IMG/VR virus record: IMGVR_UViG_3300031539_000013
Direction: 5' to 3' (one strand)
DNA: 64,000 nucleotides
DNA from: a virus
The notes under the pieces are model-generated. The model saw only the letters and a list, made by a program, of their open reading frames with translations, had not been told where the DNA came from and did not search any database. Each line of letters starts with the position of its first letter. The stretch's first letter is position 1. Both the position numbers and the translations under genes were made by a program. Positions 18,018-39,259 of this stretch are shown here, piece after piece.

Positions 18018-20261
18018 CTAATTTCTTATTGGACTATATGTACGCCTGCGTAGAAAATCATCAAGCACAAATTCTTGTTCATTGAGTTTCTGCACGGTGT
18101 CATATATGCCACGAGTGCCAAGTAGCGCATATCCTCCGGCAGTAAATAAGTCATAATTAGTCATATCCTCCGGCCCATCAATATCCCTGCACTCCTCCAA
18201 TACTTCAATGTGCGTCTCTTCGTCAGCCTCGTTCTCTATCCATGTCATGTACTCTGTGAAGATGTCCTGTTTAACCTTATTAGCTGTCTCTCCCGGGGTG
18301 TTGTTGATACGCATGGTTTTCGGGTCTATACGGTAAAGCAAAAACCCTCCATATCCTCTCTCATCAAAATAATCCCAGAGGAAAGGATAGTCTATCTCAG
18401 GGAACATAGGCACACCAAAATAGAGGCACATCATAAGCATATCTTCTCCATAGATATCTTTATCAAAAGTCCTCTGAGCATATATGCAGACAAATTTACG
18501 CTTCATACGGAAGTCACCATCCCTTAGTTGCCCTTTGCGGATGACTGCTCCTCCTCCCTTTGATTTGCGATTGCCCTCTGTCTTGTTAAACTTAAATGGG
18601 TCGCCTCCTGCTACTCCCCAATATGAGTTACCAGGCTTCCATAGCCCCTCATCATCACTCCATACCTTCTTATTGGATTCCGAGTCGTTAAGCTGATGAC
18701 TTACCTTAAACTTACCCTGTGGATTTTCAACAAAGATCACCTTTGAGTCTCTTATATTTTCTTTCCATACAAAGTTCCCCGTTACTATCGCCTGTTTGGA
18801 GAAGGTCAGTTCGTCAATATAGTTCTCCAATTTGTTCATGTTAAACCCTGATGATTTCGCTGCTGTGCGGAAACACTCTGCAAACCGGATAGGGTAAAGC
18901 CTGATGTTCTCTGATAACGCTTCCTGATCTTCTGCATCAATATATCCTTTTCTGGTGTTGAGCAAAAATTCCCTTGCTCCTATGTCTCTTTTTATGTACT
19001 CGGACTGCTGTTGTGTCGGGGTGTCGATGACACTCATCCCATATTCATCAATAAAACCCTGTAACCCATCATAGGCGGGAATGAAAAGCACTGCTAATCC
19101 TGATCGTGTTTGTCCATTGGGGTTGCGCTCGTAATAATCGCTCATCTTACACTGATGCTTAAAGGCACGTCCTCCTCCTTTCTCCATCTCCCCTACCGTG
19201 GATGTTTTGATGGTATAACCTACAATGTCACCTCCCATTACAAGACATTCCTTTACTACGGTGTGCCTGTCCCAACAGGAGAGTCCTTTTTTCAGCTTCC
19301 CTACCTCATCGTCATGATGGAAGTACAACTTATCACCGTCATAGGCAGATGGATCGGCTATCTCATAGTTAATACCCGATTCAAGCCCTAGGTCAGATGT
19401 TGACAATGACCCCTTTGAAGAGAGCCTTTTTGCCGGAGGAGAGAAGGATAGTTCTGTCTTGGGAGATGTTGAGCCTTCATAGTTAGGCTTAAAGAAGAAC
19501 GGCAGTTTTTTCCATGGTGCTACGAGGTGTCTCAGGAAACATTTGCGGGACTGCGTATCATTCATGGACTGAATGCCACCGAAAGCACCCATTGTCCTGC
19601 TTATGATCTCGTAACTGATGCATTCAGCCTTATATGTAGCACCCTCCCTTCTGTGCTTGGGGTAGTTGAAGCCAAAGAACACCCTTCGAGCAAAATCAAT
19701 AAATTCATACTCACCCTTTGCGTTCCTGGTAGCAATGCCCTTCTGGTTACATCGTGGAGAAATAGTCTCGGTAAATATTTTTCGTGCAAAGAGAAAGAAT
19801 CGCCTGTCCCTATCCCTGTACTTTGGCAGTCCGACATCAATGCTCCACCATCCGCAATAGAAATAATGCCATCCATCAATGTATGTAGGCACACCGTTGT
19901 TGTAAAACCAGTATCCGTTAAGCCTCCTGTCCCATTGTGTCCTGATAAAAGCTATTTCTTCTTCGTAGATGTCCTGATGTGCTTCAAGAGCCTCCCATAT
20001 CTCATCAAGGGTCTCATACCTTGAATGTAGTTCTTTTATCCTTTTGGGTAGCCTCGGGGGATGCCACTTCTGTTCCCGGGCAGGCAGTCCAAAATTATCT
20101 ACTAAGTGTGGCTCTGGAGGCACGGGGAGGGCTATCTCTATCGGGATAAGGTCTTTGTCGTCAATGTTCACCCATACACTCTTTTGAGCATCCTCGTATT
20201 GTGATAATATCTGAGGATCAACTTCTCTGTGGTACCGTTTTAATAGGGCTAAATGATTCAT
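18018..20261 (-). CDS. terL: terminase large subunit
   Basis: Walker-A-like KHRREGATYK, Walker-B-like LYFHHDDE and nuclease-like VAGGDPF. The track start at 20309 is a TTG overlapping the upstream gene. I prefer ATG 20261 (MNHLALLKRY...), 10 nt after the upstream stop. Confidence 0.8.
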   Translation of the reverse strand: MNHLALLKRYHREVDPQILSQYEDAQKSVWVNIDDKDLIPIEIALPVPPEPHLVDNFGLPAREQKWHPPRLPKRIKELHSRYETLDEIWEALEAHQDIYEEEIAFIRTQWDRRLNGYWFYNNGVPTYIDGWHYFYCGWWSIDVGLPKYRDRDRRFFLFARKIFTETISPRCNQKGIATRNAKGEYEFIDFARRVFFGFNYPKHRREGATYKAECISYEIISRTMGAFGGIQSMNDTQSRKCFLRHLVAPWKKLPFFFKPNYEGSTSPKTELSFSPPAKRLSSKGSLSTSDLGLESGINYEIADPSAYDGDKLYFHHDDEVGKLKKGLSCWDRHTVVKECLVMGGDIVGYTIKTSTVGEMEKGGGRAFKHQCKMSDYYERNPNGQTRSGLAVLFIPAYDGLQGFIDEYGMSVIDTPTQQQSEYIKRDIGAREFLLNTRKGYIDAEDQEALSENIRLYPIRFAECFRTAAKSSGFNMNKLENYIDELTFSKQAIVTGNFVWKENIRDSKVIFVENPQGKFKVSHQLNDSESNKKVWSDDEGLWKPGNSYWGVAGGDPFKFNKTEGNRKSKGGGAVIRKGQLRDGDFRMKRKFVCIYAQRTFDKDIYGEDMLMMCLYFGVPMFPEIDYPFLWDYFDERGYGGFLLYRIDPKTMRINNTPGETANKVKQDIFTEYMTWIENEADEETHIEVLEECRDIDGPEDMTNYDLFTAGGYALLGTRGIYDTVQKLNEQEFVLDDFLRRRTYSPIRN

Positions 20262-20271
20262 ATTCCCCCAA

Positions 20272-20871
20272 TTAATTATGCACGAAAAGCGGCTTCGGTA
20301 TATGAACAATTCTTAGCCTTCTTCGTCTGCAATAATTTGCACAATCTTCTGCATATCTCCCATCTGCGGATAGATGTATATGATTAAACCCGACCCTTCT
20401 AGCCACATCCAACTTCACAATGAATGAACCCATATCAATATGATTTTCTTTTACCTCAGAAATAAATAAATTATATTTCTCATAAGAATGCACGGTGTTG
20501 CAATAAACAAATCCCACAAATTCATTCCTGCACTCATTCATAAAAATTCTTATAAAATCAGGAACATAATAATTATCATCATTCGTAATAAGAACATAGT
20601 CCCTGTGGTTTAATGATAATTGTTTTAAAGCTATTTTTCGATTTGGATGCCCCCACGCTCCATTTACTGTTGGTGTTTCATAATATTGTATGCGAGCATC
20701 ATCATACGAATCTATAACATCTTTAACTTCTTTTGGCGCGGGTCCATCATGAATAATATGAATCTGCCATTGTGGACAGCTTTGTATTAAAATACAATCA
20801 ATCATAATTCTTAATGGCACTGCACGTTGATACGCGGCAATTATAATATGAAGGATACGAGGACGTATCAT
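20272..20871 (-). CDS. glycosyltransferase (GT-A fold)
   Basis: N-terminal ILHIIIAAYQR... strand and ITNDDNYY acidic (DxD-type) motif. ATGA overlap with the upstream glycosyltransferase. Confidence 0.6.
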   Translation of the reverse strand: MIRPRILHIIIAAYQRAVPLRIMIDCILIQSCPQWQIHIIHDGPAPKEVKDVIDSYDDARIQYYETPTVNGAWGHPNRKIALKQLSLNHRDYVLITNDDNYYVPDFIRIFMNECRNEFVGFVYCNTVHSYEKYNLFISEVKENHIDMGSFIVKLDVARRVGFNHIHLSADGRYAEDCANYCRRRRLRIVHIPKPLFVHN

Positions 20872-21569
20872 ATTACTTTTATTAATCGTGTATTTGCATT
20901 TTTAAAATCATCATCAAAATCTTCCGGTGTCCTGCCCATGTGCCAACCCCAATTATTAGCAATATTCTCCTCGCTCTGTCTGCAATGTAACTCCTCATAC
21001 CTATCTATAACATAATTTAAAGATAGATATTTAAAGTGCATAGCTATAATACCGGATTTAACATCCAAAATATATTCTCCCTCCGGTCTGGCAAAATGAC
21101 AGCCTGGCTCATAATTAATATTTTTTATCTTATCTGGACGAAATAAAAACATCTTACTCCTGAGTTCTATCCCCATATTAACCTCATCATAGATTTGTCC
21201 CTGAGTGGTAGGAAATACATTAGAAAACATTTCAAACATGAAGGGCAGGATAACTGTCCCCTTAGACCGTTCAAGGGCAAGTTCTAATCTTTTGTGATAA
21301 ACTATCTCATCCACGTCAGCGACAATAACCCAATCTGCACCCGACTCTTTCCAGCAATCATTCTTTAAATTTATAAGGATGTCTTCTCTATATTTACCAT
21401 CAGTATTAAATTCTATAATATTCGCTCCAAATTGCTTTGCTATATTTACAGAATTATCTGTTGATCGGTTATCAAAGACAGTAACACTCCCATATTGGGA
21501 ATAATGCCTGAGAAAATAAGGTAACATTTTTTCTTCGTTGTAACAAAATGTAAAGGTTTCTATTTTCAT
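20868..21569 (-). CDS. glycosyltransferase family 2-like (paralog A)
   Basis: FCYNEEKMLPYFLRHYSQYG..VFDNRSTDNS...VADVDE. 233 aa. ATGA overlaps at both ends. Confidence 0.65.
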   Translation of the reverse strand: MKIETFTFCYNEEKMLPYFLRHYSQYGSVTVFDNRSTDNSVNIAKQFGANIIEFNTDGKYREDILINLKNDCWKESGADWVIVADVDEIVYHKRLELALERSKGTVILPFMFEMFSNVFPTTQGQIYDEVNMGIELRSKMFLFRPDKIKNINYEPGCHFARPEGEYILDVKSGIIAMHFKYLSLNYVIDRYEELHCRQSEENIANNWGWHMGRTPEDFDDDFKNANTRLIKVI

Positions 21570-22267
21570 ATCCTTGGTATTACAATTTTAATTAATCTAT
21601 CAAAATCCGCACCTACCTGCTCTGGTGTTCGCAATAAGTGGGTGCCAAGTTTTAAGTCTCTGTTCTGTTGACTCATCCTTGCTCCTGAGTTTACAGTTCT
21701 ATCAATCGTATATTCCCTACCGAGATGCTTCATGTGAAGTGTTTTTATTGGGCCTTTCCTCTCAATGACTACGTTACCCTGTGGTATTGCCAGATGACAT
21801 CCTGGGATATAATTCATCTCAGTTATTTGATCGGGACGAATAAGATTCATCTTAGGCCATGTCTCATGTCCAAGTTTCACCTCATCATAGATTTGCCCCT
21901 GAGTGGTAGGGAAGTGATCAATAAACATATCGAACATATCTGGCTCAATGACTGTGGCTTGAATTTTCCCTAGATGTGCTATCAGATCAGGACAATAAAT
22001 AAACTCATCCATGTCTATGACAATACACCAATCTGCCTTCGATCCTCGCCAGCAATGTTCTTTTATCTGGAGATTAGTCATGTCGTCAAACTGACCACAA
22101 GTGTCGAACAGTCTTATTTCGGCCCCTTCTGATTGCGCTATCTCTACTGAATGATCAGTGGAGTAATTGTCATAAACGATAATCTTCCCATACTGAGAAT
22201 AATGTCTCAGGAAATACGGAAGAATCTTTTCTTCGTTATAACAGACCGCATAGACCTCTATTCTCAT
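21566..22267 (-). CDS. glycosyltransferase family 2-like (paralog B)
   Basis: VCYNEEKILPYFLRHYSQYG..VYDNYSTDHS...VIDMDE. Same 233-aa length and roughly half the residues identical to paralog A by eye. Confidence 0.65.
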   Translation of the reverse strand: MRIEVYAVCYNEEKILPYFLRHYSQYGKIIVYDNYSTDHSVEIAQSEGAEIRLFDTCGQFDDMTNLQIKEHCWRGSKADWCIVIDMDEFIYCPDLIAHLGKIQATVIEPDMFDMFIDHFPTTQGQIYDEVKLGHETWPKMNLIRPDQITEMNYIPGCHLAIPQGNVVIERKGPIKTLHMKHLGREYTIDRTVNSGARMSQQNRDLKLGTHLLRTPEQVGADFDRLIKIVIPRI

Positions 22268-22358
22268 TTTCTTCTTTTAAAAATCTTCCTTAAAAAATTC
22301 AAAAACGCTGCTAGATTTGGTGTTGCGCCAGTTGCCCTTACTTCATTGTCTTTAGTTT

Positions 22359-22871
22359 TCATGTCATATTTATTAATGAGAGCCAAAATCCTTTCTCCAT
22401 TATTTCCTGATAATATGGTATCAATCCAAGGTGTTTCACATCATTCCATGTTATTTCACATGAAGGCCAAGTCTCTTGACTCTTAAATTTATCTTTGTTA
22501 TAAAAATAATCGTGCGCCATAATTACACAGTCCTTCTTTAGATGAGGGGCAAGAGACTGTACTTCTTTTATCTTATTCCCATTATCACAAAGTATTAACG
22601 TCCGTGGTTTAATCAGGTTTATGATAAAACCCATATTCAAGAAAATATCCATCTGGCAAAAAATCATGTTCCACGGGAGATATTCTGTCTTTATATCCCG
22701 TCTCTGATCGAAAGTTATGAAGTCGAAATTATTATCTATTTCTTTTCTCAGATCATAAATGATATTCGTAAGCCGTCCCGTCATCGTGCCAAGTTCGATT
22801 ATTCTATCAGGGATCATTGCAATCTTGAAATACTCCCAAAATATATCCTCTATTGTTGATATTTGTAACAT
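22359..22871 (-). CDS. class I SAM-dependent methyltransferase (candidate sugar methyltransferase)
   Basis: IIELGTMTG resembles SAM-binding motif I. Start moved from the track's 22922 to ATG 22871, which makes a TAATG junction with the upstream gene. Confidence 0.5.
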   Translation of the reverse strand: MLQISTIEDIFWEYFKIAMIPDRIIELGTMTGRLTNIIYDLRKEIDNNFDFITFDQRRDIKTEYLPWNMIFCQMDIFLNMGFIINLIKPRTLILCDNGNKIKEVQSLAPHLKKDCVIMAHDYFYNKDKFKSQETWPSCEITWNDVKHLGLIPYYQEIMEKGFWLSLINMT

Positions 22872-23539
22872 TACTTCTGTCCTGTATTCCAAGTTGTAGC
22901 CTGATCTCCGGTATGTACACAATAGTCATCTGGCAATACTGCCGCCCTATAACCACGTCTGAAATATTCCTCCCCGATTTTGCATTCTCTTAATGCTAGA
23001 AAATCATCTTTAGTTGACCATTGCGCCCAGGGTGCTATCTCTTTATAAACCCGCATACTCCTTATCCCTGGATGAAAAGTAAAACCATGCCAGAGATTAT
23101 CCATTCCAGCAATAGAAGCATATCTATATTCAACTCCCCCCGTTATTTGTACCTCTGAATCGACAGGTTGATTATGGATGTTTGATATCCATGTCTGCAT
23201 CACTAAATGATTATTATTAACTGGTAGTAGAGCAAGTTCAATAAATCCTGGCTTAATAAACTCCCAATCATCCTCTGTATGAAATACAAAGGGTGTTTTA
23301 ACCATTGAATAGGCTCTATCGATACTATCAATTAATCCCATATTTACCCCATTGAGCAAAAGAGTATAATTAGGATAGAGATCACAAAGTACTTTATGCA
23401 TCTCTTTATTTGCAGAATCTTCTACAATGATAAATTCTTCAATAGGATAGGTATTCATTGCATTAAAACTCTCGATAGTTCTTTTAAGAAGTTCTATCCT
23501 ATTACATGATGTTAATACTACGCTTACTGTTGATTCCAT
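22871..23539 (-). CDS. glycosyltransferase family 2
   Basis: VSVVLTSCNRIELLKRTIESF...EFIIVEDS, the classic GT2 N terminus plus an acidic motif. Confidence 0.65.
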   Translation of the reverse strand: MESTVSVVLTSCNRIELLKRTIESFNAMNTYPIEEFIIVEDSANKEMHKVLCDLYPNYTLLLNGVNMGLIDSIDRAYSMVKTPFVFHTEDDWEFIKPGFIELALLPVNNNHLVMQTWISNIHNQPVDSEVQITGGVEYRYASIAGMDNLWHGFTFHPGIRSMRVYKEIAPWAQWSTKDDFLALRECKIGEEYFRRGYRAAVLPDDYCVHTGDQATTWNTGQK

Positions 23540-24297
23540 ATTCTATTTTTTTTACAAAATTTTATAATATTATCATCATAAATGGTACACTTTTCATTGA
23601 TTGCATCAAACCATGATAATGGACGTGGAGGTGTATTTGGATTACCTGTTCCTCTGGCAACTTTCTTTAGCCATTCCTCATGGGATTTCGTGAAATAATG
23701 ATTAACTCTACATATTTGATTCGGAGAATCAGTAACCGGCCCCTGAAATGGTGCTTTCGCTTCGTTAACAGCAGTTCGGGTATATTCTCCTCTATGTGGG
23801 TCAGAGATTCCTGTGCAATACTGAGTATTGATAATAGATTTTATCCACATTCGTTCATCAGGTTCTCTCCATACATAATTATCAGTAACCTTCCCTTCTG
23901 GTTTTGTTTCATGTCCTGAACTACCAAAGGTTGTCCACGGTAAGCCAAGTGATCCAAATTCTTCATAATCCTTCAATAACTTCTTAATGTCTTTGTGTTG
24001 AAGCAGAACAATAAACTCATCCACATCAACCATCGCCATCCAATATGCCGGATGACTTTTAAGTGTATCCTGATTGAGATAAGTAGGTAAAAATAATGAA
24101 TCCCTATCTATCCTGATGACAGAAACCTTATCTCCCCAGATATTATGAACTGGAATGATGCTACGATGATCATACATCACAATATGCTCAAATCCTATGG
24201 CAAGGTGATATTTTACCCATTCGTCCAAATAGTCGCCATCGTCTCGGACGTAAGTGCTAATTATTGCGTAATATCTCATCCTGATATTGTTTTTCAA
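23524..24297 (-). CDS. GT-A glycosyltransferase (GT92/DUF23-like)
   Basis: YAIISTYVRDDGDYLDEWVKYHLAIGFEHIVMYDHRS ... MVDVDEF. Confidence 0.55.
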   Translation of the reverse strand: MKNNIRMRYYAIISTYVRDDGDYLDEWVKYHLAIGFEHIVMYDHRSIIPVHNIWGDKVSVIRIDRDSLFLPTYLNQDTLKSHPAYWMAMVDVDEFIVLLQHKDIKKLLKDYEEFGSLGLPWTTFGSSGHETKPEGKVTDNYVWREPDERMWIKSIINTQYCTGISDPHRGEYTRTAVNEAKAPFQGPVTDSPNQICRVNHYFTKSHEEWLKKVARGTGNPNTPPRPLSWFDAINEKCTIYDDNIIKFCKKNRIWNQQ

Positions 24298-24820
24298 GTT
24301 CGATTATTCCTTTATTTCTTTCTTTAATAAACCATAATGGGTTTCCTCCCCATATCTCCCATGAAGGAATACTTCTTTTTACAAAACTCATTGCCCCTAT
24401 CGCTGCACCTTCATTAATCTCGAGTCCTTGCATGATGACTGTGCCGGAACCTATCTGCACAAATTTTCTCAAATACACTGGTGCTCCAATAACGTGAGTG
24501 TATTTATCAGGTGTCATAGGACTTATCATAAAGTCTCCTCCAAAATCATCCGTTGCACTGAATATAGTACATCTGGGTGACAGCCCGGTGTAATCCTCCA
24601 TTGTAATACCATACTTGCCATATAGACCGCAATATGCTCCGATATGAATATTCTTTCCAAGCGTTATGCTTCCTGATAGCACACAGAAATCATCAATACG
24701 CACATTATTGCCTATTGATATGTCTGTTCCATAAATAGAACACTTATCGGAAATTAATATATTTTCCCCAACTGATTTTAATCCAAGACTACTTACTTCA
24801 TCTTTTGTTAGAAATCCCAT
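24257..24820 (-). CDS. hexapeptide-repeat (left-handed beta-helix) acetyltransferase, PglD/WbbJ-like
   Basis: Imperfect hexapeptide repeats (ISIGNNVRIDDFCVLSGSITLGKNIHIGAYCGL...; IGSGTVIMQGLEINEGAAIGAMSFV). Confidence 0.7.
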   Translation of the reverse strand: MGFLTKDEVSSLGLKSVGENILISDKCSIYGTDISIGNNVRIDDFCVLSGSITLGKNIHIGAYCGLYGKYGITMEDYTGLSPRCTIFSATDDFGGDFMISPMTPDKYTHVIGAPVYLRKFVQIGSGTVIMQGLEINEGAAIGAMSFVKRSIPSWEIWGGNPLWFIKERNKGIIELEKQYQDEILRNN

Positions 24821-25439
24821 CTGTATATATTTTAAATTTACTTAAATCTGGATATGGCAATTCAATATCTGGCATGTCTTTTTTTGTCCCGTCTAAGTTA
24901 TAAAATTGTTGGATTAAAAGTAGTCCAAATTCTGCTATTATTGGATTCATATAAAAATTCCATCCAAGTTGTGTAAAATTATCTTCGTGATAATCACATT
25001 CATTTCTTCCACTAAATCTTGCTTTTTTAAACCATTCGTAAGCATCTTTATTGTCTGTGAGAATACACCCTCCCTTCCCAAGTTTTAAATGTTTATAAGG
25101 GCCCGTGAAGGAGCAACACATAAATGTATCTGGCCTATACATATTAGCCGTGAACCTTAATGCAGAATCCCATACCCGTGTACTCATTAACCAATAAGCT
25201 CCCTTAATTGTCTTATGGGGTACTTGATAGAATAAAACCTCCCCCCCTGCATGAATTATCTCACATGGCACGCTCATATATGTTCTACATGGAATCCCTA
25301 CTTTCTTTCCTTTGATATTGTCATACGTTAAGGCAAGGAATAAAGCATTGCTCTCATTGTCCACGCAAGCACAATACGGAGCACCAGTATAGTCTGCTAT
25401 TCTTTCTTCAAAAGCCTTAGTTACATCATGAGGTTTCAT
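24798..25439 (-). CDS. DegT/DnrJ/EryC1/StrS-like PLP aminotransferase, unusually short (213 aa)
   Basis: FEERIADYTGAPYCACVDNESNALFLAL...GIPCRTYMSVPCEIIHAGGEVLF and SFTGPYKHLKLGKGGCILTD (candidate PLP lysine), in the usual order but compressed. Confidence 0.5.
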   Translation of the reverse strand: MKPHDVTKAFEERIADYTGAPYCACVDNESNALFLALTYDNIKGKKVGIPCRTYMSVPCEIIHAGGEVLFYQVPHKTIKGAYWLMSTRVWDSALRFTANMYRPDTFMCCSFTGPYKHLKLGKGGCILTDNKDAYEWFKKARFSGRNECDYHEDNFTQLGWNFYMNPIIAEFGLLLIQQFYNLDGTKKDMPDIELPYPDLSKFKIYTDGISNKR

Positions 25440-26218
25440 TGGAATATATAATTCAAATCATCACTAATGCAATCCTCTGATGAGGTGCTTTCATCCCTGA
25501 ACTCATGCAATCGTTCTCCTTCACGAAGTCCCGTTAGCCTTATTAAAGTATCGATATTCCCATATCGCTTGGCAAATTCATTTGCAATATCAATCATCCT
25601 GAATGACTTCATCTGTATGATTCTTATACCAACCTCATCTTTGCTCTCCCAGATGTAATTAATAAGTTCTTGGGGATGTATGAAAAAGCGAGTCATCTTA
25701 TCTGATGTAAGGTTAATGCAATTGCTCTTGTTGATCTGTTCTTTCCATATAGGTAGAACTGAGCCTGTTGACCAAAGGACATTGCCTGATCGGATACTTA
25801 AAAATCCAGCTTTCGTTACCATGTCTTCAGCCAGTGATTTTGTCTTGCCATACACATTGTCGGGATTAATGGCTTTGTCAGAACTCATATTAACCAGTTT
25901 AACACTATGATGTAAGCAGGCATATACTACATTCATTGTGCCAACTACATTATCCCTGGCAGCCTCCATTGGTTGTTGTTCGCAAATATTAACATGCTTT
26001 AGTGCCGCAAAATGAAAGACATAATCCATGCCTTTACAAGCATTAAGAATAGCGGGATAATTACAAATATCACCAATCACATAGTTATACTTCGGATGTT
26101 TCGCTTTCATCCTTACCTGTTGTGCTTCATTACGTGAAAAAATGGTTACATTTTCACCTACTCTCTCGGCTAGCTTACTGCCGATAAATCCTGTTCCTCC
26201 TGTTATAAGTACTTTCAT
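25436..26218 (-). CDS. UDP-sugar 4,6-dehydratase/epimerase of the CapD/PseB/PglF (Polysacc_synt_2) type
   Basis: ITGGTGFIGS (Rossmann), FHFAALKHVNICEQQPMEAARDNVVGTMNV, SSDKAINPDNVYGKTKSLAE (YxxxK), IRSGNVLWSTGSVLPIWKEQI, LTSDKMTRFF. Confidence 0.8.
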   Translation of the reverse strand: MKVLITGGTGFIGSKLAERVGENVTIFSRNEAQQVRMKAKHPKYNYVIGDICNYPAILNACKGMDYVFHFAALKHVNICEQQPMEAARDNVVGTMNVVYACLHHSVKLVNMSSDKAINPDNVYGKTKSLAEDMVTKAGFLSIRSGNVLWSTGSVLPIWKEQINKSNCINLTSDKMTRFFIHPQELINYIWESKDEVGIRIIQMKSFRMIDIANEFAKRYGNIDTLIRLTGLREGERLHEFRDESTSSEDCISDDLNYIFQ

Positions 26219-26850
26219 TTTAGTTGGTTTTTATATTCAATTAAAAAAACATCGCGTCCTGGTTCTACAAATTCCTTAGAATATGCTTTTCTGTCCTTAC
26301 ACATACATATCCACTGCTCTGCTGCAAATCTATCATTTTTATCTAGGGTGTCAATCTTTGGTAATCGGTAGATATAATCCCTCCTAAACCACCAGAAGTT
26401 ACCTGAGAAATGGTCTGGTGACTTACAGAAATTTACCGATGACACATCATAGCCTGTCGATACACGGTCATAATGCTCTCTCCAACGATTAATTACGCTT
26501 TCGTTGATCCATGCCCTCCAATGATTTATTATCGTCTCAAACGGTCTCGTTATAGACTTGGTGTGGAAATAGAAGCCTACGTGTGGTGTGATGTCTGCCT
26601 CAATCAGTTTTAATGTAGGGAACTCATACTCCATGGGGTTCTCGGAGAAATATTTGATTTTTAGTTTCGGATAAAGATTGACTACCACCTTTTCAAGTAA
26701 TGCCTTTTCTGCGGGAGACCCTATACACCCGATGCTTATCTCATCACAGGCATCGTAAAGCCCTGATGTCAATAAAATTCGCATCTGATCTGTAATTACG
26801 GAATAGTAATGATTTACCATATAAATGTGCCAATAGCCGAGAATTTTCAT
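26215..26850 (-). CDS. hypothetical protein (211 aa) in the glycan cluster
   Basis: Track ORF with ATGA overlaps at both ends. HFSGNFWWF motif. Function unknown. Confidence 0.55.
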   Translation of the reverse strand: MKILGYWHIYMVNHYYSVITDQMRILLTSGLYDACDEISIGCIGSPAEKALLEKVVVNLYPKLKIKYFSENPMEYEFPTLKLIEADITPHVGFYFHTKSITRPFETIINHWRAWINESVINRWREHYDRVSTGYDVSSVNFCKSPDHFSGNFWWFRRDYIYRLPKIDTLDKNDRFAAEQWICMCKDRKAYSKEFVEPGRDVFLIEYKNQLK

Positions 26851-27485
26851 GTTGTTTCTTTTTTGGGTGTCTCCTCATCCCTTACTTTCTTTGCGAAGTC
26901 CTCCGGTCTGAGTGCCAGTCTCTCGTTTTCCATGTATCGGAGTATTTCATCTTTTAGATAGGGGTTGTTGTCCTCATTCAATATCTCCATTAGATTGTCT
27001 TCCAGTTCATCCCTTAGTTCTGCAAGTTTTGTGATGCTCTTGGAGTCTCCTGACTGTATCTCCAACATGAGATTGCTATAAGCAGCCTCAATGCTCACCT
27101 GATAACTGTATTTGTAATTACGATGCATCCTGACGTACTGCACTACCTTTTTGTTGACAATACCATTCTTTCCCTTTAGGATATCCTCAATAGGGCTTTC
27201 AAATACTCCTCCCTCAACAACTTCAAACCCTACGTCATGGGCCACCTCAATCTTTCTTTTAAGCACATCGGAATACTTTCTTCTGTATGGACTATGCTTA
27301 TCGTACATCAGGAGTATGTAGAGGTGTACCTTGTTGTTGTCGATGTCTTCTCCTGCACTTGCTCTAAACTCTTTTATCTTACCAAGTTCCTTGTAGAATT
27401 GTGTCACAGATACTCCCTCCGGTATCTTCTCGGGGTTGAACATCATATTGACGTACTCTTTGCTATGGAATTGCCCTAGTCTCAT
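26847..27485 (-). CDS. hypothetical protein (212 aa)
   Basis: Track ORF with ATGA overlaps at both ends. A small-terminase role is possible but unsupported. Confidence 0.5.
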   Translation of the reverse strand: MRLGQFHSKEYVNMMFNPEKIPEGVSVTQFYKELGKIKEFRASAGEDIDNNKVHLYILLMYDKHSPYRRKYSDVLKRKIEVAHDVGFEVVEGGVFESPIEDILKGKNGIVNKKVVQYVRMHRNYKYSYQVSIEAAYSNLMLEIQSGDSKSITKLAELRDELEDNLMEILNEDNNPYLKDEILRYMENERLALRPEDFAKKVRDEETPKKETT

Positions 27486-28189
27486 AAATCAAGTTTTTGT
27501 TGGATATTATCATATTCCGTTTTTTCATTGGACCATATACCTTCTTTAAATTGTCCCGTTCTAATATTTTGATCTACAAACGGAATAAAATTTAACCAAT
27601 CAGCCCCTATGTGTTCACATACAATTGTTTGACCAATTCTTGATTTACACCATTCTGCTAAATGGGAATAATCTATTTGCTTATTATTGCACCTATAAAC
27701 ATGCCCTCCTATTTTATAAGGAGGATCAATAAACCAAGAAGCGTTTTCATTTTCAATACTTTCATATGAGCCTAATCGTATATTCCAATGTTTAATTTTC
27801 CATAATTGAGATGCTATTTTATTCAACGCATAGTTTTGATGATTTGGCCTATCTCTTAATCTGATTGTTGCTAAATGACGGGGTTCATAAAATCCAAATC
27901 CTATTGTAAATCCTATCAATAAACGCTGTTCCTCACAATCATAAGTATAATTATTAATATTTTCGCCGGCTTTAAATCTCGGTAGAGATAATATATCTTG
28001 GGGGGAGCATTTTTGCAACCATTGCCAAATTTTAATTATAACATCGTATTTATCAACAATCAAAATATCTCGGTCAAAATATCTCAAAGCATAACGAGCG
28101 GTACCGCAAAAGGGCTCAATTATCTTATCGTGCTTTGGTGCAGGATAAAATTTAACTATATTCGTTTTTGCTCCGTAATAGCTCCACAT
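27482..28189 (-). CDS. dam: N6-adenine DNA methyltransferase (D12/Dam class)
   Basis: YYGAK, EPFCGTA (FxGxG) and FIDPPY (DPPY), in Dam order. Confidence 0.85.
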   Translation of the reverse strand: MWSYYGAKTNIVKFYPAPKHDKIIEPFCGTARYALRYFDRDILIVDKYDVIIKIWQWLQKCSPQDILSLPRFKAGENINNYTYDCEEQRLLIGFTIGFGFYEPRHLATIRLRDRPNHQNYALNKIASQLWKIKHWNIRLGSYESIENENASWFIDPPYKIGGHVYRCNNKQIDYSHLAEWCKSRIGQTIVCEHIGADWLNFIPFVDQNIRTGQFKEGIWSNEKTEYDNIQQKLDL

Positions 28190-28193
28190 AACT

Positions 28194-28898
28194 TTAAATT
28201 TTAGCCAGTATAAATCTTCTCTGCACCCTCACAAGCCCTTTTCCGCTATTAACCTTCTGATGGAGCTCGTATTGGAGAGGGATGTCTGTTATCCGTCGTA
28301 AAACGACTGTATCGCCTACCTCAACATCCACACCATCATCGGTATTAAACTCATCGACATATTCTCTGTTGGGTGCGCTGAGATACCTCACAACACCGAA
28401 TGACACGTTCACATTGGATTTATTGTTGAGTGTCACCAGTTCCATCCCAAGTGCCTCCAACCTCTTTTTCTTAGCTGTGACAAACGGATCATCGCATGGC
28501 TCAATAAGACAGTAACCATTAAGGGACTTCACAAAACCATCACCATAAACAGCGAAAATGTTCTGGTATTCGGTAAAAATATACCTATCGTTTCCCTCGA
28601 GTATGTATCGCTTGCTCTCTCTGGCTAGTGCGTTTATCACCGACATGTAGTATATGATGACGTGATCACCAAACTTTAGATCCATGGTTGTCAGCCATGG
28701 CATACCCTTATTTCCCTCGCCACAATAACTCAGGTGTGATGGTAAACCGTAAACCTCTCCCGTTACCGTGGCATTTTTTTCTGGCTCATAGGTGTTATCA
28801 ACGTACAACTCCACTCCATTCTTCAACTTTATCGAATCATTCTCGGGGTCGAGTTTTATCATCACATAGTTATTGAGGCATCTTTTATAGTCCATCAC
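28194..28898 (-). CDS. hypothetical protein, possibly two GroES-like beta-barrel halves
   Basis: VMIKLDPEN..IKLKNGVELYVD...VTGEVYGLP...LKFGDHVIIYY and a second CLIEP...SFGVVRYL...VEVGDTVVLRR segment resemble Cpn10 strand patterns. Weak. Confidence 0.4.
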   Translation of the reverse strand: MMDYKRCLNNYVMIKLDPENDSIKLKNGVELYVDNTYEPEKNATVTGEVYGLPSHLSYCGEGNKGMPWLTTMDLKFGDHVIIYYMSVINALARESKRYILEGNDRYIFTEYQNIFAVYGDGFVKSLNGYCLIEPCDDPFVTAKKKRLEALGMELVTLNNKSNVNVSFGVVRYLSAPNREYVDEFNTDDGVDVEVGDTVVLRRITDIPLQYELHQKVNSGKGLVRVQRRFILAKI

Positions 28899-30049: not shown

Positions 30050-30069
30050 TTATTATAGTTTTAAATCTA

Positions 30070-30102
30070 CAAATGCAAAACCTCCCCAACTCAGTAGGGA
30101 GG
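30070..30102 (-). terminator. rho-independent terminator after the radical-SAM gene
   Basis: CCTCCC (30081-30086) / GGGAGG (30097-30102) stem, followed on the minus strand by TTTTGCATTTG. A second 7-bp hairpin TTGGCTA/TAGCCAA lies at 30128-30148. Confidence 0.5.
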
Positions 30103-30188
30103 TCGCTACATTAAACAAGAAAAGCATTTGGCTATCGGCATTAGCCAACAACAAAGATAGACAATATTTGCTTCCTGTTCTCATTTTT

Positions 30189-31037
30189 TTATTCGTTAAT
30201 ACTAAATTTATACGTGTTAATTTTTTTACAATTAGCTGCTATAATAATTGGATTTGCCCATTCACGTTGAAATAAATTCCATTTTCTTTCTTTCAATACA
30301 ACACCATCTTTATCTTGATAACGCATTGCAAAAGGGAAAAATCCTGCCCTAATTGTTTGATTAATTCTTTTTTCTGCTTTTTCAATAGTATCTTTTGGAT
30401 ATCCAATCAAAACATAAGCTCTAGCCTTCCTGTTCTCCAAAGTGATATTTGCTTCTTTAAACATTTTCCCAGCTTCAATCAGTGGTTCATAATCATCAAG
30501 TGTGTCGTAGGCACAAAACAGTTCTTTAAGCCTAATGGATGTAAATAAATCAATATGCCATTGTTTTAATATCTTTGCTTCAATACCACCGCTAAATATT
30601 GCAGGTTGTTTTTGGTTTCTTAACATTTCAAAAACATCTTTTATGTGTTGATCAGAACAAGCAAGTAAATTATCATCAATTACGTTCCATCCGGACTTTA
30701 TTTTTAATTCTTTTAATTCAGATTCTCTTTTCCATACTGAACAAAACCAACATTTGTTTGGGCATCCTCTTGAAGTAATTGTATATCCTTCTTTAATATA
30801 CATACCCGGTTCAAATTCTCCACCAACTTCATTAAATGCTGGTCCTCCAATCTTAACAGGAGCAACACCCTTCCATCCCTGATATAATTTTTCTGCGATT
30901 GGAATATCCCATGTAAAAGCCACAGATATATGAATCTGATCCGCTACATCAAAAAGATCAGGCATGCGATTAATAATTACATTCTCATCAATTGGTGTTG
31001 CTTTTGTCTTTCTTGGGAATATTCTTAACACTTTCAT
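30189..31037 (-). CDS. radical SAM enzyme
   Basis: RGCPNKCWFCSV is a CxxxCxxC cluster motif at about residue 90, followed by a TIM-barrel-like alternating pattern. 282 aa. Confidence 0.7.
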   Translation of the reverse strand: MKVLRIFPRKTKATPIDENVIINRMPDLFDVADQIHISVAFTWDIPIAEKLYQGWKGVAPVKIGGPAFNEVGGEFEPGMYIKEGYTITSRGCPNKCWFCSVWKRESELKELKIKSGWNVIDDNLLACSDQHIKDVFEMLRNQKQPAIFSGGIEAKILKQWHIDLFTSIRLKELFCAYDTLDDYEPLIEAGKMFKEANITLENRKARAYVLIGYPKDTIEKAEKRINQTIRAGFFPFAMRYQDKDGVVLKERKWNLFQREWANPIIIAANCKKINTYKFSINE

Positions 31038-32672: not shown

Positions 32673-33548
32673 TTAAATCTTGTTATCCCGGCAGAACTTA
32701 TCAAGCCTAGTGAATAAATTTCTATCCTGATAGAAGAGTGTGAGGCGTACCTTCGCCATCATGCCCTGATCCTTCTTTACCGTGCCCCAGAGATGTATGT
32801 AACGTGGTTTTGTCAGATCTAATCCTTTATTTATCTGCATGGCATCTTTAGCCATTACCTCTACTTTTCTTCTCAGGTGGTGTTTTTTTATAAGTGATGA
32901 TAGGAAGTATTGCTCATGGAAGAGATTTTGGTGTATGAGCATCTCATGAAACTTTTTAAAGAAGAGAATCTGGTTCTCCGGTGCAAAAATATACTTCTCA
33001 CTACATGCTTTCCACTCGGGGAAGATACTTAGGTCATTTCCCCCACATATACCACAGTTATAAGCATAATCATACACAGGGTTATCTACAATGGCTTGTG
33101 GTTTAACAGGGGCAGCCCTGAAGCATGGTTTTAACTGTTTATAATATTTATATCCATCCAGGTTAAACGGCTCTTGTGATTGAAAGCATAGGTGTGCGTT
33201 AAGGATTCTTTTTGGAAGGGGATTCCATATAAAAACGTCATTATCGACATGAACAAACGGCTCTTTTTGTTCGTTATAAGCTATCAGTTTGCCGTAAGCC
33301 CAAAAGAAACGGGACACCTTCTTCATCTTATCGAGGGCGGTAGAATAACTTGTGACGGGAAATTTTAGTTTTTTAAATATATCCACGCCCCATGAGGTAG
33401 AAACAATCTGCACCTCGGGGAAATTTCTCGAGGCACAGAATGTTGCCAGGGCTGTTGTGAAAAGGAAGTCGCTATATTTTGTGAATCCACATTTATTGCC
33501 GAAGGATTCATCTGTGTTAAAGTATGAAAACACTGCTTTTCTTATCAT
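32673..33548 (-). CDS. hypothetical protein with a DxD-type motif (possible nucleotide-sugar transferase)
   Basis: 291 aa. FVHVDNDVFIW after an N-terminal beta-alpha-like region. Confidence 0.4.
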   Translation of the reverse strand: MIRKAVFSYFNTDESFGNKCGFTKYSDFLFTTALATFCASRNFPEVQIVSTSWGVDIFKKLKFPVTSYSTALDKMKKVSRFFWAYGKLIAYNEQKEPFVHVDNDVFIWNPLPKRILNAHLCFQSQEPFNLDGYKYYKQLKPCFRAAPVKPQAIVDNPVYDYAYNCGICGGNDLSIFPEWKACSEKYIFAPENQILFFKKFHEMLIHQNLFHEQYFLSSLIKKHHLRRKVEVMAKDAMQINKGLDLTKPRYIHLWGTVKKDQGMMAKVRLTLFYQDRNLFTRLDKFCRDNKI

Positions 33549-37887: not shown

Positions 37888-38433
37888 ATGAATGATCTGT
37901 CTTCCTCTCCTTCTCTCTCTCCTGATCTATTGAAGATGTATAATTCTTTAAGTGATGTTAATAAACAAATCTTTGTTAAGGTGTTTAAATATCTTTGGGG
38001 TGTGGTGTGCCCTCTGTCCCGTTTCGTTAGGCATGGCGGTATATTGCACTCGTTCTGGGCTGTTGATCAGATCCGCGATAAATACGGCCTGAATGATACC
38101 AGGCTGGTCCTGTTGTCTTATTTATACCAGGTCAGCAATGCAGGAAAGAAAGTCGTTCACACTGATACAATTTATAATGGCATGATTCTACCTAATATTA
38201 TTGAATCAACTAAGCGCAGGGAGTTATTTAAACTTAAACATGATGGATATATTAACAGGACCCGGCGGGATCCTTCCCGGCTTCATTATGTCTCTGGCTT
38301 CTCTCCGGGTAATGCCTTTATTATTCTCTTACCTTCTGGGGTGTCACTGATTGAGAAGTTTGAGAAGGAGTTATATAATTTGCTCCTGCAATCATCTCTT
38401 AATGATCTGACAGGGGCAAATAAAAAGCCCTGA
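37888..38433 (+). CDS. hypothetical protein (181 aa), possible winged-helix regulator
   Basis: Track ORF. First rightward gene after the divergent region. TAACTTTG (-7-like) at 37832-37839. Confidence 0.5.
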   Translation: MNDLSSSPSLSPDLLKMYNSLSDVNKQIFVKVFKYLWGVVCPLSRFVRHGGILHSFWAVDQIRDKYGLNDTRLVLLSYLYQVSNAGKKVVHTDTIYNGMILPNIIESTKRRELFKLKHDGYINRTRRDPSRLHYVSGFSPGNAFIILLPSGVSLIEKFEKELYNLLLQSSLNDLTGANKKP

Positions 38434-38583
38434 TATATATTTCACCTTCAATCAGAGCTCAATAATAGCTTTTAACTATCGGGGCATGTCTCTTCCCTCC
38501 TTCCTTATAATTCTTTACTTTCTCTTTTGGTGCTATTTATATTATCAGGCTCTTAAAGTCTCTTAAATCTCTTTATTTGGTGT

Positions 38584-38784: not shown

Positions 38785-38824
38785 TGTCTTGTATGTTTTA
38801 TTGGTTAGTACTCTTTACTTGGTG

Positions 38825-39040: not shown

Positions 39041-39051
39041 TGTCTCAGGTT

Positions 39052-39252: not shown

Positions 39253-39259
39253 CATAGTT

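Follow-up and report, generated by a model that had tools for sequence, protein, structure and literature searches.

Phage hypervariable regions that carry glycosyltransferase genes are already known from pelagimyophages (PMC7029224), and clade-specific glycan clusters have been described in Megavirinae (PMC10117803). The capsid and tail-tube proteins of mycobacteriophages are reported as glycosylated (Freeman 2023, as cited in PMC12619734), and domain 2 of the chlorovirus enzyme A064R is a cation-independent capsid-glycan transferase, with homologues in planctomycetes and homologues fused to GT10 (PMC9614988). In mycobacteriophages, chloroviruses, and Megavirinae, surface glycans differ between close relatives. 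We propose, from genes alone, that the same holds for an uncultivated phage in which ten genes would form a kit for synthesizing a rare amino sugar and building a sugar chain. If this is true, closely related phages would bear different surface glycans.

The ten genes lie at positions 20272-26850 of the window, a 64,000-nucleotide stretch from IMG/VR record IMGVR_UViG_3300031539_000013 (genome size about 77 kb). The phage falls in a clade whose members are uncultivated, about 65-78 kb in size, and probably phages of Bacteroidota; its own host is probably a Flavobacteria-type bacterium. All ten minus-strand ORFs of the original prediction are present, and genes called independently on three further assemblies of this phage have the same boundaries; at 22871 and 24279 these calls start at ATG, versus TTG in the mechanical ORF list. 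The predicted stop/start overlaps were all confirmed, as ATGA (4 nt) at 20868, 21566, 25436, 26215, 26847, and 27482 and as TAATG (1 nt) at 22871. Overlaps of 16-23 nt were found at 23524, 24257, and 24798, and exactly 10 nt separate the last stop codon (20272-20274) from the terL ATG (20261), as had been described. Overlapping junctions are enriched here (9/11) relative to the upstream flank (4/21; Fisher p = 0.0016, junctions counted by hand from gene calls on other assemblies). This tight chain runs up to terL, and no convincing internal terminator was found within it.

We compared 40 related loci in which both flanks are visible, as well as further partial ones. The upstream boundary is a conserved 212-aa gene (26847-27485, minus strand) that lies outside the cluster and has a core-gene-like GC3 (0.49). 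Its product has no match in Pfam, PHROG, NCBIfam, or the PDB; by position, it is a candidate small terminase. The downstream boundary is the large terminase gene (18018-20261, minus strand; phrog_6681, 2e-75). In 23 of the 40 loci, the 212-aa gene homologue abuts or overlaps terL, with a gap of -11 to +29 nt, whereas the other 17 carry 3.0-9.4 kb of widely differing glycan genes between the same flanks. Homology breakpoints coincide with the island edges; nucleotide homology to loci L003 and L004 (87.5%), for example, stops at 20264-20265, the terL-side edge. Islands differ between backbones whose TerL proteins are 93-95% identical and, conversely, three island genes are 96%, 91%, and 91% identical to those of locus L016, versus 74% for TerL. 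Basal TerL lineages have no island, and the comparison shows the island-less state to be the ancestral one.

The cluster is thus an accessory, hypervariable, recombining island at an insertion hotspot, as opposed to a constant component of the packaging operon. The view of it as an integral piece of the late operon, and not a moron, is correct as to its physical chaining to terL, but not as to its evolution, and the suspected indel next to terL is strikingly borne out by the loci with and without an island. Hypervariable regions with glycosyltransferase genes are likewise found in pelagimyophages (PMC7029224). As relatives have a different kit or none at the same spot, the product looks like a strain-variable glycan. 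Such islands are common in the clade, and the expectation that the arrangement would be unusual did not hold: islands occur in at least 17 of the 40 loci, in 12 further partial loci the gene just upstream of terL is homologous to the terL-proximal transferase gene, and a glycan cluster of 11 kb is also present in a cultured Flavobacterium myophage. Among the 149 island ORFs, 32 match GT2 and 15 match Glyco_tranf_2_4, while the remaining matches include methyltransferase, RmlD, DegT, Hexapep, and C-methyltransferase families. The island genes have a GC of 0.34-0.40 and a GC3 of 0.25-0.41, compared with 0.42-0.49 for the terL, portal, and capsid genes. This agrees with the predicted A+T enrichment over the head genes, and GC is just as low in the Dam, radical SAM, and fibre-like genes, which are also accessory genes of the window. 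Composition and mosaic identities both fit the horizontal origin suggested for the island.

We are highly confident that the ten genes form a glycan-biosynthesis island. HMM searches supported most of the predicted functions, with eight of the ten proteins assigned by Pfam at scores above gathering. Three of the genes may encode a sugar pathway. The first (25436-26218) specifies a Polysacc_synt_2 UDP-HexNAc 4,6-dehydratase of the PseB/PglF/CapD type (Pfam 1e-57), which also matches NCBIfam PseB (4e-49) and FnlA (1e-38), both under the equivalog cut-offs. At 260 aa against a usual size of about 330, its C-terminus is about 55 residues short; the structures 4j2o, 6bwc, and 2gn4 align across nearly its full length, and the SSDKA and YGKTK motifs are kept. 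The second (24798-25439; Pfam DegT 7e-14) encodes a DegT-like PLP-dependent sugar aminotransferase, as predicted, with the correction that the protein is half-size (213 aa versus about 370). It matches QdtB residues 36-109 and 184-222, its K116 aligns to the Schiff-base lysine, and it keeps all PLP-site residues, including the phosphate- and pyridine-binding ones. The third (24257-24820; Pfam Hexapep 7e-12) encodes a left-handed beta-helix acyl/acetyltransferase whose top NCBIfam match, under the cut-off, is the NeuD/PglB/VioB sugar acetyltransferase family (7e-13).

Together, these enzymes fit a predicted route from UDP-HexNAc to a UDP-2,4-diacetamido-trideoxyhexose. The dehydratase would convert UDP-GlcNAc to UDP-4-keto-6-deoxy-HexNAc, the miniature DegT enzyme would aminate C4, and N-acetylation by the beta-helix transferase would then give a bacillosamine-type UDP-2,4-diacetamido-2,4,6-trideoxyhexose; we infer this product and the order of the steps from the enzyme families.

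The short forms of the aminotransferase and dehydratase, the low GC3, and a GIY-YIG homing endonuclease at the island edge of locus L061 might be taken to mean that the island is selfish or decaying cargo, that is, a recent, partly degraded bacterial glycan fragment of no coherent function, carried because the hotspot tolerates insertions. We consider this very improbable. The ten ORFs are all intact and tightly overlapped, and the catalytic residues are conserved; the half-size DegT protein and the short dehydratase are putatively active. Mini-DegT proteins make up a large conserved family of their own, with 374 clusters at E<=1e-10, most of them 195-230 aa long. In this family, E11, P50, T53, S110, F111, K116, and G124 do not vary, and D91 hardly does. 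A 62.5% identical mini-DegT protein is encoded in the Flavobacterium myophage cluster. Furthermore, several samples yielded assemblies of the same phage in which the first island protein and the gene calls across the island are identical, and islands persist across the whole clade.

Five island genes encode GT2/Glyco_tranf_2_4 proteins that all lack transmembrane segments and have a DxD-like motif between residues 85 and 100: a Glyco_tranf_2_4/GT92-like GT-A enzyme (23524-24279; Pfam 1.8e-11 and 1.4e-7; DVD at residue 85), a GT2 enzyme (22871-23539; 8e-9; EDD at residue 89), two paralogous GT-A enzymes of the Glyco_tranf_2_4 (21566-22267; 1e-13; DMD at residue 85) and Glyco_tranf_2_4/GT2 (20868-21569; 1e-10; DVD at residue 85) types, and a GT2 enzyme adjoining terL (20272-20871; 3e-8). 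The first two are each 91% identical to their L016 homologues. The last is a frequent bookend of the islands: 8 of the 13 distinct complete islands have a homologue immediately upstream of terL, as do the 12 partial loci.

The first island gene (26215-26850), originally left without a function, encodes a protein that AlphaFold2 (pLDDT 94.8) and Foldseek place in the GT-A (nucleotide-sugar transferase) fold; a DxD motif is absent. Its model matches TarI, DPMS, GtrB, ArnC, and IspD in the PDB (TM 0.5-0.58) and phage and giant-virus proteins in BFVD (TM 0.73-0.84), including annotated glycosyltransferases and a 638-aa target that the output lists without a name or the matching domain. All but one of the 13 distinct complete islands have a homologue, and in bacteria the homologues occur as fusions with Methyltransf_24, GT10-like, GT2, GT25, or RgpF domains. 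By this indirect link, the protein is probably a cation-independent glycosyltransferase from the family of A064R domain 2, the chlorovirus enzyme of capsid glycans.

The predicted SAM methyltransferase (22359-22871, 170 aa) drew no significant match when searched alone, and its assignment is weak and at the family level. Among 32 relatives, matches are to Methyltransf_24 in 18, Methyltransf_23 in 13, and RMNT_CmcI in 3 (best 7.7e-4); in the PDB, the family profile matches CmcI best (E = 0.15), and the alignment covers SAM motif I. The protein is probably a class I SAM-dependent sugar O-methyltransferase of the CmcI/RMNT type.

In the mechanism we propose, the six soluble GT-A-fold transferases (five GT2-type with DxD, one A064R domain 2-like without it) would build an oligosaccharide stepwise, the small O-methyltransferase would cap it, and late in infection the chain would grow directly on an acceptor in the cytoplasm, in line with the absence of lipid-carrier machinery from the island and the genome record. 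The position of the island suggests co-expression with the packaging genes. Virion proteins are the most likely candidate acceptors, with a probability that we would put just short of even. Neither an extension nor a Ser/Thr tract that varies with the presence of the island was seen in the major capsid protein, the scaffold-position protein, or the neighbouring 301-aa protein, and no structural protein has a striking Ser/Thr-rich linker; the FN3 fibre, put forward as a Ser/Thr-rich target, is only moderately so (20%).

The enzymes could instead remodel host envelope glycans, making a new nucleotide sugar and adding residues to the host's lipid-linked precursors of O-antigen, capsule, or glycoproteins on the cytoplasmic side of the membrane, for export by the host flippase and polymerase. 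The changed surface would block superinfection or keep progeny off debris, and island variability would mirror host glycotype diversity. All the island enzyme families are typical of bacterial O-antigen/capsule loci, and the cellular homologues of the first island protein occur in multidomain polysaccharide enzymes. Soluble or peripheral GT2 enzymes usually have lipid-linked acceptors, and soluble ones also act on undecaprenyl-PP-linked intermediates at the inner membrane face, so missing transmembrane segments are compatible with such remodelling. The same role has been proposed for the glycosyltransferases of pelagimyophage hypervariable regions (PMC7029224). We nevertheless regard this reading, our second choice, as rather unlikely for our phage: the island has no transmembrane helices, neither it nor the genome record contains a membrane protein, an initiating phosphoglycosyltransferase, a flippase, a polymerase, or a ligase, and the terL-adjacent position implies late expression, which would leave little time to rebuild a cell surface. 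The seroconversion systems that are known (GtrABC, O-acetylases) sit in the membrane and come from temperate phages. No integrase is on record in this genome, and the phage is therefore probably lytic.

A C5-cytosine methylase is encoded at 34680-35636 (Pfam 6e-46), which is what would be expected if the island served to hypermodify DNA, with sugars placed on a modified pyrimidine before packaging to evade restriction. The island would then be akin to the phage clusters of Pyle et al., which combine a C5-methyltransferase, a TET-like dioxygenase, and a glycosyltransferase; GT-A enzymes do glycosylate 5hmC in other phages, their clusters can adjoin terminase or structural genes (bioRxiv 10.1101/2023.12.21.572611), and hypervariability would suit an arms race with restriction systems. 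However, no Tet_JBP/2OG dioxygenase or thymidylate-synthase-like (ThyA-like) hydroxymethylase is on record in the whole ~77-kb genome, and DNA glycosylation is for this reason improbable, in line with its lower ranking in the original prediction. The methylase is also 8 kb from the island, while known pathways are clustered, and the presence of Dam and C5 methylases suggests ordinary methyl protection. The known glycans on DNA consist of one to three hexose, HexNAc, or heptose units (bioRxiv 10.1101/2023.12.21.572611), whereas the island encodes a diamino-sugar pathway and, besides its methyltransferase, six transferases.

The sole sizeable unknown near the methylase, a DUF6734 protein (32673-33548, minus strand; Pfam 5e-40), is a GT8-like (glycogenin-like) glycosyltransferase and not a dioxygenase. 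Its AlphaFold2 model (pLDDT 94.5) matches glycogenin, GT8, XXYLT1, and UGGT in Foldseek at E about 2e-5, and H100-x-D102-N-D104 is invariant. The gene belongs to the core of the clade, lies apart from the island, and also occurs in relatives that have no island; in locus L027, it adjoins homologues of the first and last island genes, and it is probably functionally linked to the island.

Upstream, a terminator-like hairpin followed by a sigma-70-like promoter match (30052-30104, minus strand; consensus matches only, to a consensus that may not be that of Bacteroidota) is a possible start of the transcription unit containing the island. The sole intergenic spacer in the island (22268-22358, 91 nt) has no significant RNA structure (z = 0.88). 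The matching junction in L016 is a 4-nt overlap, and the gene following the spacer has a GC of 0.40, above that of its neighbours; the spacer is possibly a recombination seam.

The interval 20272-26850 is filled by ten co-directional ORFs, all on the minus strand, and the same gene boundaries were obtained when genes were called independently on further assemblies of this phage, from two ENA samples and one Logan run. The independent calls place ATG starts at 22871 and 24279, where a mechanical ORF list starts at upstream TTG codons. Direct inspection of the junctions revealed ATGA overlaps at 20868, 21566, 25436, 26215, 26847, and 27482 and a TAATG overlap at 22871, in agreement with every overlap listed in the original prediction. 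Three further island junctions overlap by 16-23 nt, a single spacer of 91 nt (22268-22358) is present, and exactly 10 nt separate the last stop codon from the terL ATG (20261). In a hand count from the gene calls, overlapping junctions were more common in the island than in the upstream flank (9/11 vs 4/21; Fisher p = 0.0016). The 91-nt spacer did not fold above shuffled controls as a terminator or RNA element would, and consensus matching detected no convincing terminator inside the island. The strongest terminator-like hairpin of the region, a 10-bp stem followed by a T-run, lies at 30052-30104 (minus strand), with a sigma-70-like promoter match (10/12) directly after it, based on a consensus that may not suit Bacteroidota. 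This site (30104-30052) may be the nearest plausible start of a transcription unit, possibly that of a long late operon.

A comparison of 78 IMG/VR loci whose TerL is 35-95% identical to that of the window revealed the indel next to terL that had been predicted. In 23 loci, the homolog of the 212-aa gene upstream of the island (26847-27485) adjoins or overlaps terL (-11 to +29 nt), whereas 17 loci (13 of them distinct) have 3.0-9.4 kb between these two genes. A Pfam scan of the 149 ORFs of the 17 islands detected GT2 (32 ORFs), Glyco_tranf_2_4 (15), methyltransferases (about 10), RmlD-type reductases (7), DegT (7), Hexapep (6), Polysacc_synt_2 (4), C-methyltransferases (4), MaoC dehydratases (4), and KAS-III-like enzymes (3). 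The insertions are thus always glycan islands, with very different contents. The 211-aa gene (26215-26850 in the window) comes first in 12 of the 13 distinct complete islands, and the homolog of the terL-proximal GT2 gene comes last in 8/13, as well as in 12 partial loci.

Island content is not predicted by backbone similarity. All ten island genes of the window are present only in locus L016, and different islands were found in loci with close backbones, namely L061 (TerL and flank gene both 95% identical) and L003/L004 (TerL 93%). Nucleotide homology to L003/L004 (87.5%) ends at 20264-20265, the start of terL, and that to L061 begins again where the flank gene stops (26847). The TerL of L016 is only 74% identical to that of the window, yet its DegT protein and two of its transferases are 96%, 91%, and 91% identical, which points to a recent exchange of an internal block. 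In a neighbor-joining TerL tree, the basal lineages are all island-less and the crown clade is mostly island-bearing, with nested exceptions (L071, L033, and L032/L027); the ancestral order was thus the flank gene directly followed by terL, with a later gain and some losses of the island. Among cultured phages, a megablast of 13 kb around the island gave no match; the nearest TerL proteins are only 28-31% identical, and these phages have no glycan genes beside terL. In L061, the closest relative by TerL, a GIY-YIG/NUMOD3 homing endonuclease (L061:1296-2201, plus strand) is located exactly at the upstream island edge and might promote cassette exchange.

The identifications initially made for the flanking genes hold. 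The 747-aa large terminase (18018-20261, minus strand) matches phrog_6681 (2e-75), the gene next to it codes for the portal, and an SU10-like capsid protein gene follows. The 212-aa flank gene is a candidate small terminase purely by its position beside terL; it matched no known TerS in Pfam, PHROG, or NCBIfam or when a 21-sequence profile was compared to the PDB, and an NCBIfam scan of ten flanking proteins gave nothing useful. Upstream of it is a D12-class, Dam-like adenine methylase (27482-28189, minus strand) with a GC3 of 0.23. The homologs of the genes on both sides of this methylase, 28194-28898 and 26847-27485, are directly adjacent in most relatives. The methylase looks like an insertion itself, so that the region would have at least two insertion points. 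Island genes have a GC3 of 0.25-0.41 and core genes one of 0.42-0.49, but the Dam, radical-SAM, and fiber-like genes are equally AT-rich, and low GC therefore marks the flexible gene pool in general. The radical-SAM protein (30189-31037, minus strand; GC3 0.20) is encoded between the DUF6734 gene and the packaging region and was assigned to no subtype by NCBIfam; its substrate could be a sugar, a nucleobase, or something else.

Eight of the ten island proteins exceed the Pfam gathering score, which backs eight of the functions originally assigned, while the predicted SAM methyltransferase had no significant match when scanned alone. The five GT2/Glyco_tranf_2_4 proteins score 34.3, 42.3, 51.9, 36.1, and 44.8 bits against cut-offs of 23.3-27.5. 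Each has a DxD-type motif at residues 85-100 (DDN98, DVD85, DMD85, EDD89, and DVD85), the placement of which after beta-strand 4 was judged from sequence position only. No transmembrane-like segment was detected in any island protein.

The dehydratase (25436-26218) matches Polysacc_synt_2 (1e-57), aligns over nearly its full length with the FnlA, CapD, and FlaA1/PseB structures (4j2o, 6bwc, and 2gn4), and retains the S/T-D-K and Y-x-x-x-K catalytic motifs as SSDKA and YGKTK. It falls below every NCBIfam equivalog cut-off (167 vs 408 bits for PseB and 133 vs 730 for FnlA); its subtype (inverting PseB, retaining PglF, or FnlA) and the stereochemistry of its product are therefore not fixed by its sequence. 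The acetyltransferase (24257-24820) matches Hexapep (7e-12), and its best NCBIfam match is the NeuD/PglB/VioB family TIGR03570, whose cut-off of 160.8 bits it misses with 48.7 bits.

Sequence searches against the PDB with the 211-aa, DUF6734, and 170-aa genes gave nothing significant, and for these three only structure prediction or family-level scans were informative. The 170-aa protein (22359-22871) does not significantly match a methyltransferase profile by itself (E = 0.12). Methyltransf_24 is weakly matched by 18 of 32 relatives, Methyltransf_23 by 13, and RMNT_CmcI (rhamnosyl-O-methyltransferase/CmcI; best 7.7e-4) by 3. When the family profile was compared to the PDB, CmcI came out on top (E = 0.15), aligned over SAM motif I (E-L-G-x-x-x-G). 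This protein is likely a class I SAM methyltransferase, probably a sugar O-methyltransferase.

The aminotransferase (24798-25439, minus strand; Pfam DegT, 7e-14), here called mini-DegT, has 213 aa compared to about 370 in characterized DegT members. It aligns to residues 36-109 and 184-222 of QdtB, with K116 at the QdtB lysine region, so that some 40 residues in the interior and most of the C-terminal domain (about 90 residues) have no counterpart; the full fold-type I architecture, with large and C-terminal domains over some 360-400 aa, was not found in mini-DegT. Its length is uniform among relatives, as all seven DegT-matching island ORFs are 207-214 aa. An exhaustive search retrieved 926 clusters (50% identity) at E ≤ 1e-3 and 374 at E ≤ 1e-10; lengths of 195-230 aa prevail among the best 150, and some family proteins are fused to other domains. 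In 48 members, E11, P50, T53, S110, F111, K116, and G124 are invariant and D91 is nearly so; this set comprises the Schiff-base lysine (K116), the SF motif, the phosphate-binding threonine, and the GxGG loop, with the pyridine-binding aspartate nearly invariant. Because of this uniform length, the size of the family, and the invariant PLP-site residues, we conclude from the alignments that mini-DegT is not a fragment; it looks like a genuine, streamlined family of putative PLP enzymes. The entries named in this family are that of the window, P0285-P0434 of the relatives, and gp172 of NC_055915. We know of no characterized member of this half-size DegT family. In the islands of L011, L029, and L038 (e.g., L011:2648-6510), genes for KAS-III-like, FabG-like (adh_short_C2), and MaoC-dehydratase proteins lie beside mini-DegT, which suggests that amino-sugars are N-acylated there with short hydroxy-acyl groups.

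The AlphaFold2 model of the 211-aa protein (pLDDT 94.8) has a GT-A/nucleotide-sugar transferase fold, with TarI, DPMS, GtrB, and ArnC at TM 0.5-0.58. The protein lacks a DxD motif, and H96, K98, H147, and E178 are invariant. Predicted viral structures (BFVD) fit the model much better than the PDB does (TM 0.73-0.84, E ~1e-14); they include uncharacterized phage proteins, unnamed proteins of 638 and 445 aa, a cedratvirus protein, and annotated glycosyltransferases of Klosneuvirus and Harvfovirus. The chlorovirus PBCV-1 enzyme A064R also has 638 aa, and its domain 2 (A064R-D2, residues 213-438), which in silico annotation had missed, is an inverting, cation-independent alpha-L-rhamnosyltransferase of the capsid N-glycan (PMC9614988). 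The unnamed 638-aa BFVD target matches at TM 0.78. Like A064R-D2, the modeled protein is a GT-A-like domain of about 200 aa without DxD. Described homologs of A064R-D2 are a Pithovirus protein fused to GT10 and hypothetical proteins of bacteria, one of which is a planctomycete (PMC9614988). When viral contigs were scanned with the 211-aa gene, only close relatives came up and no distant (chlorovirus) ones. In cellular genomes, we found 60 distant homologs (24-36% identity), many on contigs of chromosomal size, in Planctomycetota, Verrucomicrobiota, Actinomycetota, Chlamydiota, and Thermoactinomycetaceae. Nine of the ten scanned are fused to a glycan-synthesis domain (Methyltransf_24 or _11, GT10-like, GT2, GT25, or RgpF). 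Since this profile matches the published description of A064R-D2, we infer by analogy that the first island gene belongs to that family.

The PglF/E/D and PseB/C/H pathways are established chemistry, and the route proposed here rests on them. By this analogy, the dehydratase would convert UDP-GlcNAc to a UDP-4-keto-6-deoxy-HexNAc, mini-DegT would aminate the latter to a UDP-4-amino sugar, and the acetyltransferase would yield a UDP-2,4-diacetamido-2,4,6-trideoxyhexose. The same three enzyme classes act in the same chemical order in the early Pgl and Pse steps, and the catalytic motifs and the PLP lysine are kept. On the other hand, the three window enzymes are far below the NCBIfam equivalog cut-offs, the DegT protein is half as long, and the downstream Pse/Leg enzymes, the PglC-type initiating transferase, and the oligosaccharyltransferase are missing from the island. 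The six transferases would then build a methylated oligosaccharide from the diacetamido sugar and host nucleotide-sugars.

Domain scans of the island detected none of the components of Wzx/Wzy-type O-antigen or capsule loci or of GtrABC seroconversion (initiating phosphoglycosyltransferase, flippase, polymerase, or membrane-bound GtrA/GtrB/GtrC) and no oligosaccharyltransferase, and no glycan export or polymerase protein is on record among the genome-wide precomputed hits and the proteins scanned. The absence of these enzymes from the island and its location among packaging genes favor a direct, sequential glycosylation of a cytoplasmic phage product. The acceptor is most likely a virion protein, a reading to which we give nearly even chances. 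No structural protein has a strong Ser/Thr tract, and the capsid protein, the scaffold-position protein, and a 301-aa neighbor do not differ in C-terminus, length, or Ser/Thr content between at least 12 island-bearing and at least 7 island-less loci. The enzymes could instead remodel host glycans on lipid-linked intermediates, on which soluble GT2 enzymes normally act, as genes of this kind in aquatic phages are usually interpreted (PMC7029224); we regard this as a serious though less probable alternative.

Glycosylation of the phage DNA is improbable. The island does resemble phage 5hmC DNA-glycosylation clusters in its GT-A transferases, which in such clusters are sometimes near the terminase, and the genome has a C5-methyltransferase as well (Pyle et al., bioRxiv 10.1101/2023.12.21.572611). 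However, known pathways require an enzyme forming hydroxymethyl-pyrimidine, and Pfam detected no TET/JBP (5mYOX) dioxygenase or ThyS-like hydroxymethylase in the scanned proteins and genome-wide precomputed hits, a search that divergent enzymes could escape. In addition, the C5 methylase is 8 kb away rather than adjacent, and the pathways described, which yield mono- to trisaccharides, are far simpler than this island (bioRxiv 10.1101/2023.12.21.572611).

Returning to a virion acceptor, a parallel is found in mycobacteriophages, in which C-terminal glycans on capsid and tail-tube subunits were shown by mass spectrometry (Freeman et al. 2023, as cited in PMC12619734). There too, soluble glycosyltransferases encoded by the phage modify phage products in the cytoplasm, in some cases together with methyltransferases, and gene content varies between related phages. 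For the window phage, by contrast, no C-terminal extension was detected in the capsid-region proteins compared. It also differs by its own nucleotide-sugar, six transferases, a defined hotspot beside terL, and a host that is probably a Gram-negative Bacteroidota. Giant viruses, with the PBCV-1 capsid N-glycan enzymes (A064R and others) and the clade-specific fibril clusters of Megavirinae (PMC9614988, PMC10117803), share a dehydratase/aminotransferase/acetyltransferase pathway of their own to bacterial-type amino-sugars such as bacillosamine, several soluble GT-A transferases with methyltransferases, and a cluster content that differs among clades. The structural matches of the first island gene to giant-virus proteins and its A064R-D2 traits (no DxD, planctomycete homologs, and GT10 fusions) add to this likeness, with A064R-D2 compared by its published description. 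Unlike the window phage, with its single-domain, miniaturized proteins, these viruses have eukaryotic hosts and multidomain enzymes.

Among cultured phages, the gp181-gp169 cluster of vB_FspM_immuto (NC_055915) has a predicted gene content in which the mini-DegT gp172 precedes a hexapeptide "pilin glycosylation protein" and an epimerase/dehydratase for nucleotide-sugars, together with five glycosyltransferases and a methyltransferase. This phage is a 160-kb myovirus whose cluster is not beside the terminase gene, and only mini-DegT is close (62.5% identity), the other enzymes being at most 35% identical over partial alignments. The hypervariable regions of pelagimyophages and cyanomyophages are likewise strain-variable in aquatic phages and carry glycosyltransferase and deoxy-sugar genes (predicted roles), but they span 35-45 kb of T4-like myoviruses and mix LPS-type genes with tail-fiber genes (PMC7029224), whereas the islands described here are compact (3-9 kb) and purely glycan, with sharp edges between two packaging-region genes.

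Virus-encoded glycan pathways are thus already known in chloroviruses, Megavirinae, and mycobacteriophages, as are variable glycosyltransferase-rich regions in marine myophages and, for gene content only, a comparable cluster in a cultured Flavobacterium myophage. Since this kind of system is known, the term "unusual" in the original prediction was too strong. What is new is the compact, purely glycan island with nucleotide-sharp boundaries at a single hotspot beside terL, the extreme turnover of its content between near-identical backbones, the miniaturized enzymes, including a large unrecognized half-size DegT family, and the model-based fold assignments for the 211-aa family and DUF6734, both functionally unannotated in the libraries and papers searched. 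We tentatively propose that, in a widespread clade of environmental phages with probable Bacteroidota hosts, the terL hotspot is a "serotype locus", where interchangeable pathways of miniaturized enzymes, among them the half-size PLP aminotransferases and A064R-D2-like transferases, would give different virion glycan coats to near-identical phages. To our knowledge, virus-encoded glycosylation has been shown experimentally only in a few giant viruses and in mycobacteriophages. If the proposal is true, the hotspot would be to phages what O-antigen diversity is to bacteria, and no self-contained virion glycosylation system would precede it except those of actinobacteriophages and giant viruses. 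A variable glycan island in an abundant uncultivated clade would show phages diversifying a glycan phenotype much as O-antigens are diversified, with consequences for how hosts are recognized, for the stability of particles, and for competition among phages in nature; the value of the finding hinges on experimental identification of the acceptor. For enzymology, three candidate families emerge: the short DegT-like proteins (about 210 aa, PLP site intact), the DxD-less GT-A family found in phages, giant viruses, and bacteria alike, and the GT8-like DUF6734.

The DUF6734 gene (32673-33548, minus strand) is outside the island. Its model (pLDDT 94.5) looks like retaining transferases of GT8/GT24, glycogenin among them, and its H-x-D-N-D motif is invariant. 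The GT8-like fold and the invariant DxD motif rule out that it is a hidden TET-like dioxygenase, which would have spoken for DNA glycosylation, and no mention of DUF6734 was found in the literature searched. It is kept in relatives with and without the island, which indicates that the clade has a core GT8-like transferase. At L027:740-2826, homologs of the last and first island genes are located directly upstream of DUF6734 instead of beside terL. This arrangement hints that the three transferases cooperate and that a second glycan locus exists.

We modestly favor Bacteroidota as the host. The closest TerL relatives in culture come from phages of Flavobacterium, Cellulophaga, Tenacibaculum, and Maribacter, the mini-DegT counterpart that is 62.5% identical comes from a cultured Flavobacterium phage (immuto gp172), and one DUF6734 homolog is binned in a Bacteroidales MAG.

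The genome outside the window was covered by contigs of 76-77.6 kb and several shorter ones from several samples, reached via three window proteins; the longest of the former carries the exact window proteins. The replication and repair genes code for a primase-helicase, RecT, a YqaJ nuclease, RusA, a GroES-like protein, a C5-cytosine methylase, and Dam, and the structural-type genes for fiber-like and beta-helix (tail-spike-like) proteins and a 2209-aa protein. No integrase is on record among the genome-wide precomputed hits and the proteins scanned. The C5-cytosine DNA methylase is full-length (34680-35636, minus strand; Pfam 6e-46) and located about 8 kb from the island; the presence of both this enzyme and Dam suggests that the phage DNA is protected by methylation. 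Outside the window, the 2209-aa protein and one of 1009 aa (L085:1690-8319 and L086:14673-17702, on contigs with the rest of the genome) have no Pfam match. In size they recall proteins of crAss-like and N4-like phages, either giant virion proteins or virion RNA polymerases. In the window, 37888-42667 (plus strand) is the sole plus-strand ORF block in an otherwise minus-strand genome and may be a divergently transcribed early or regulatory module.
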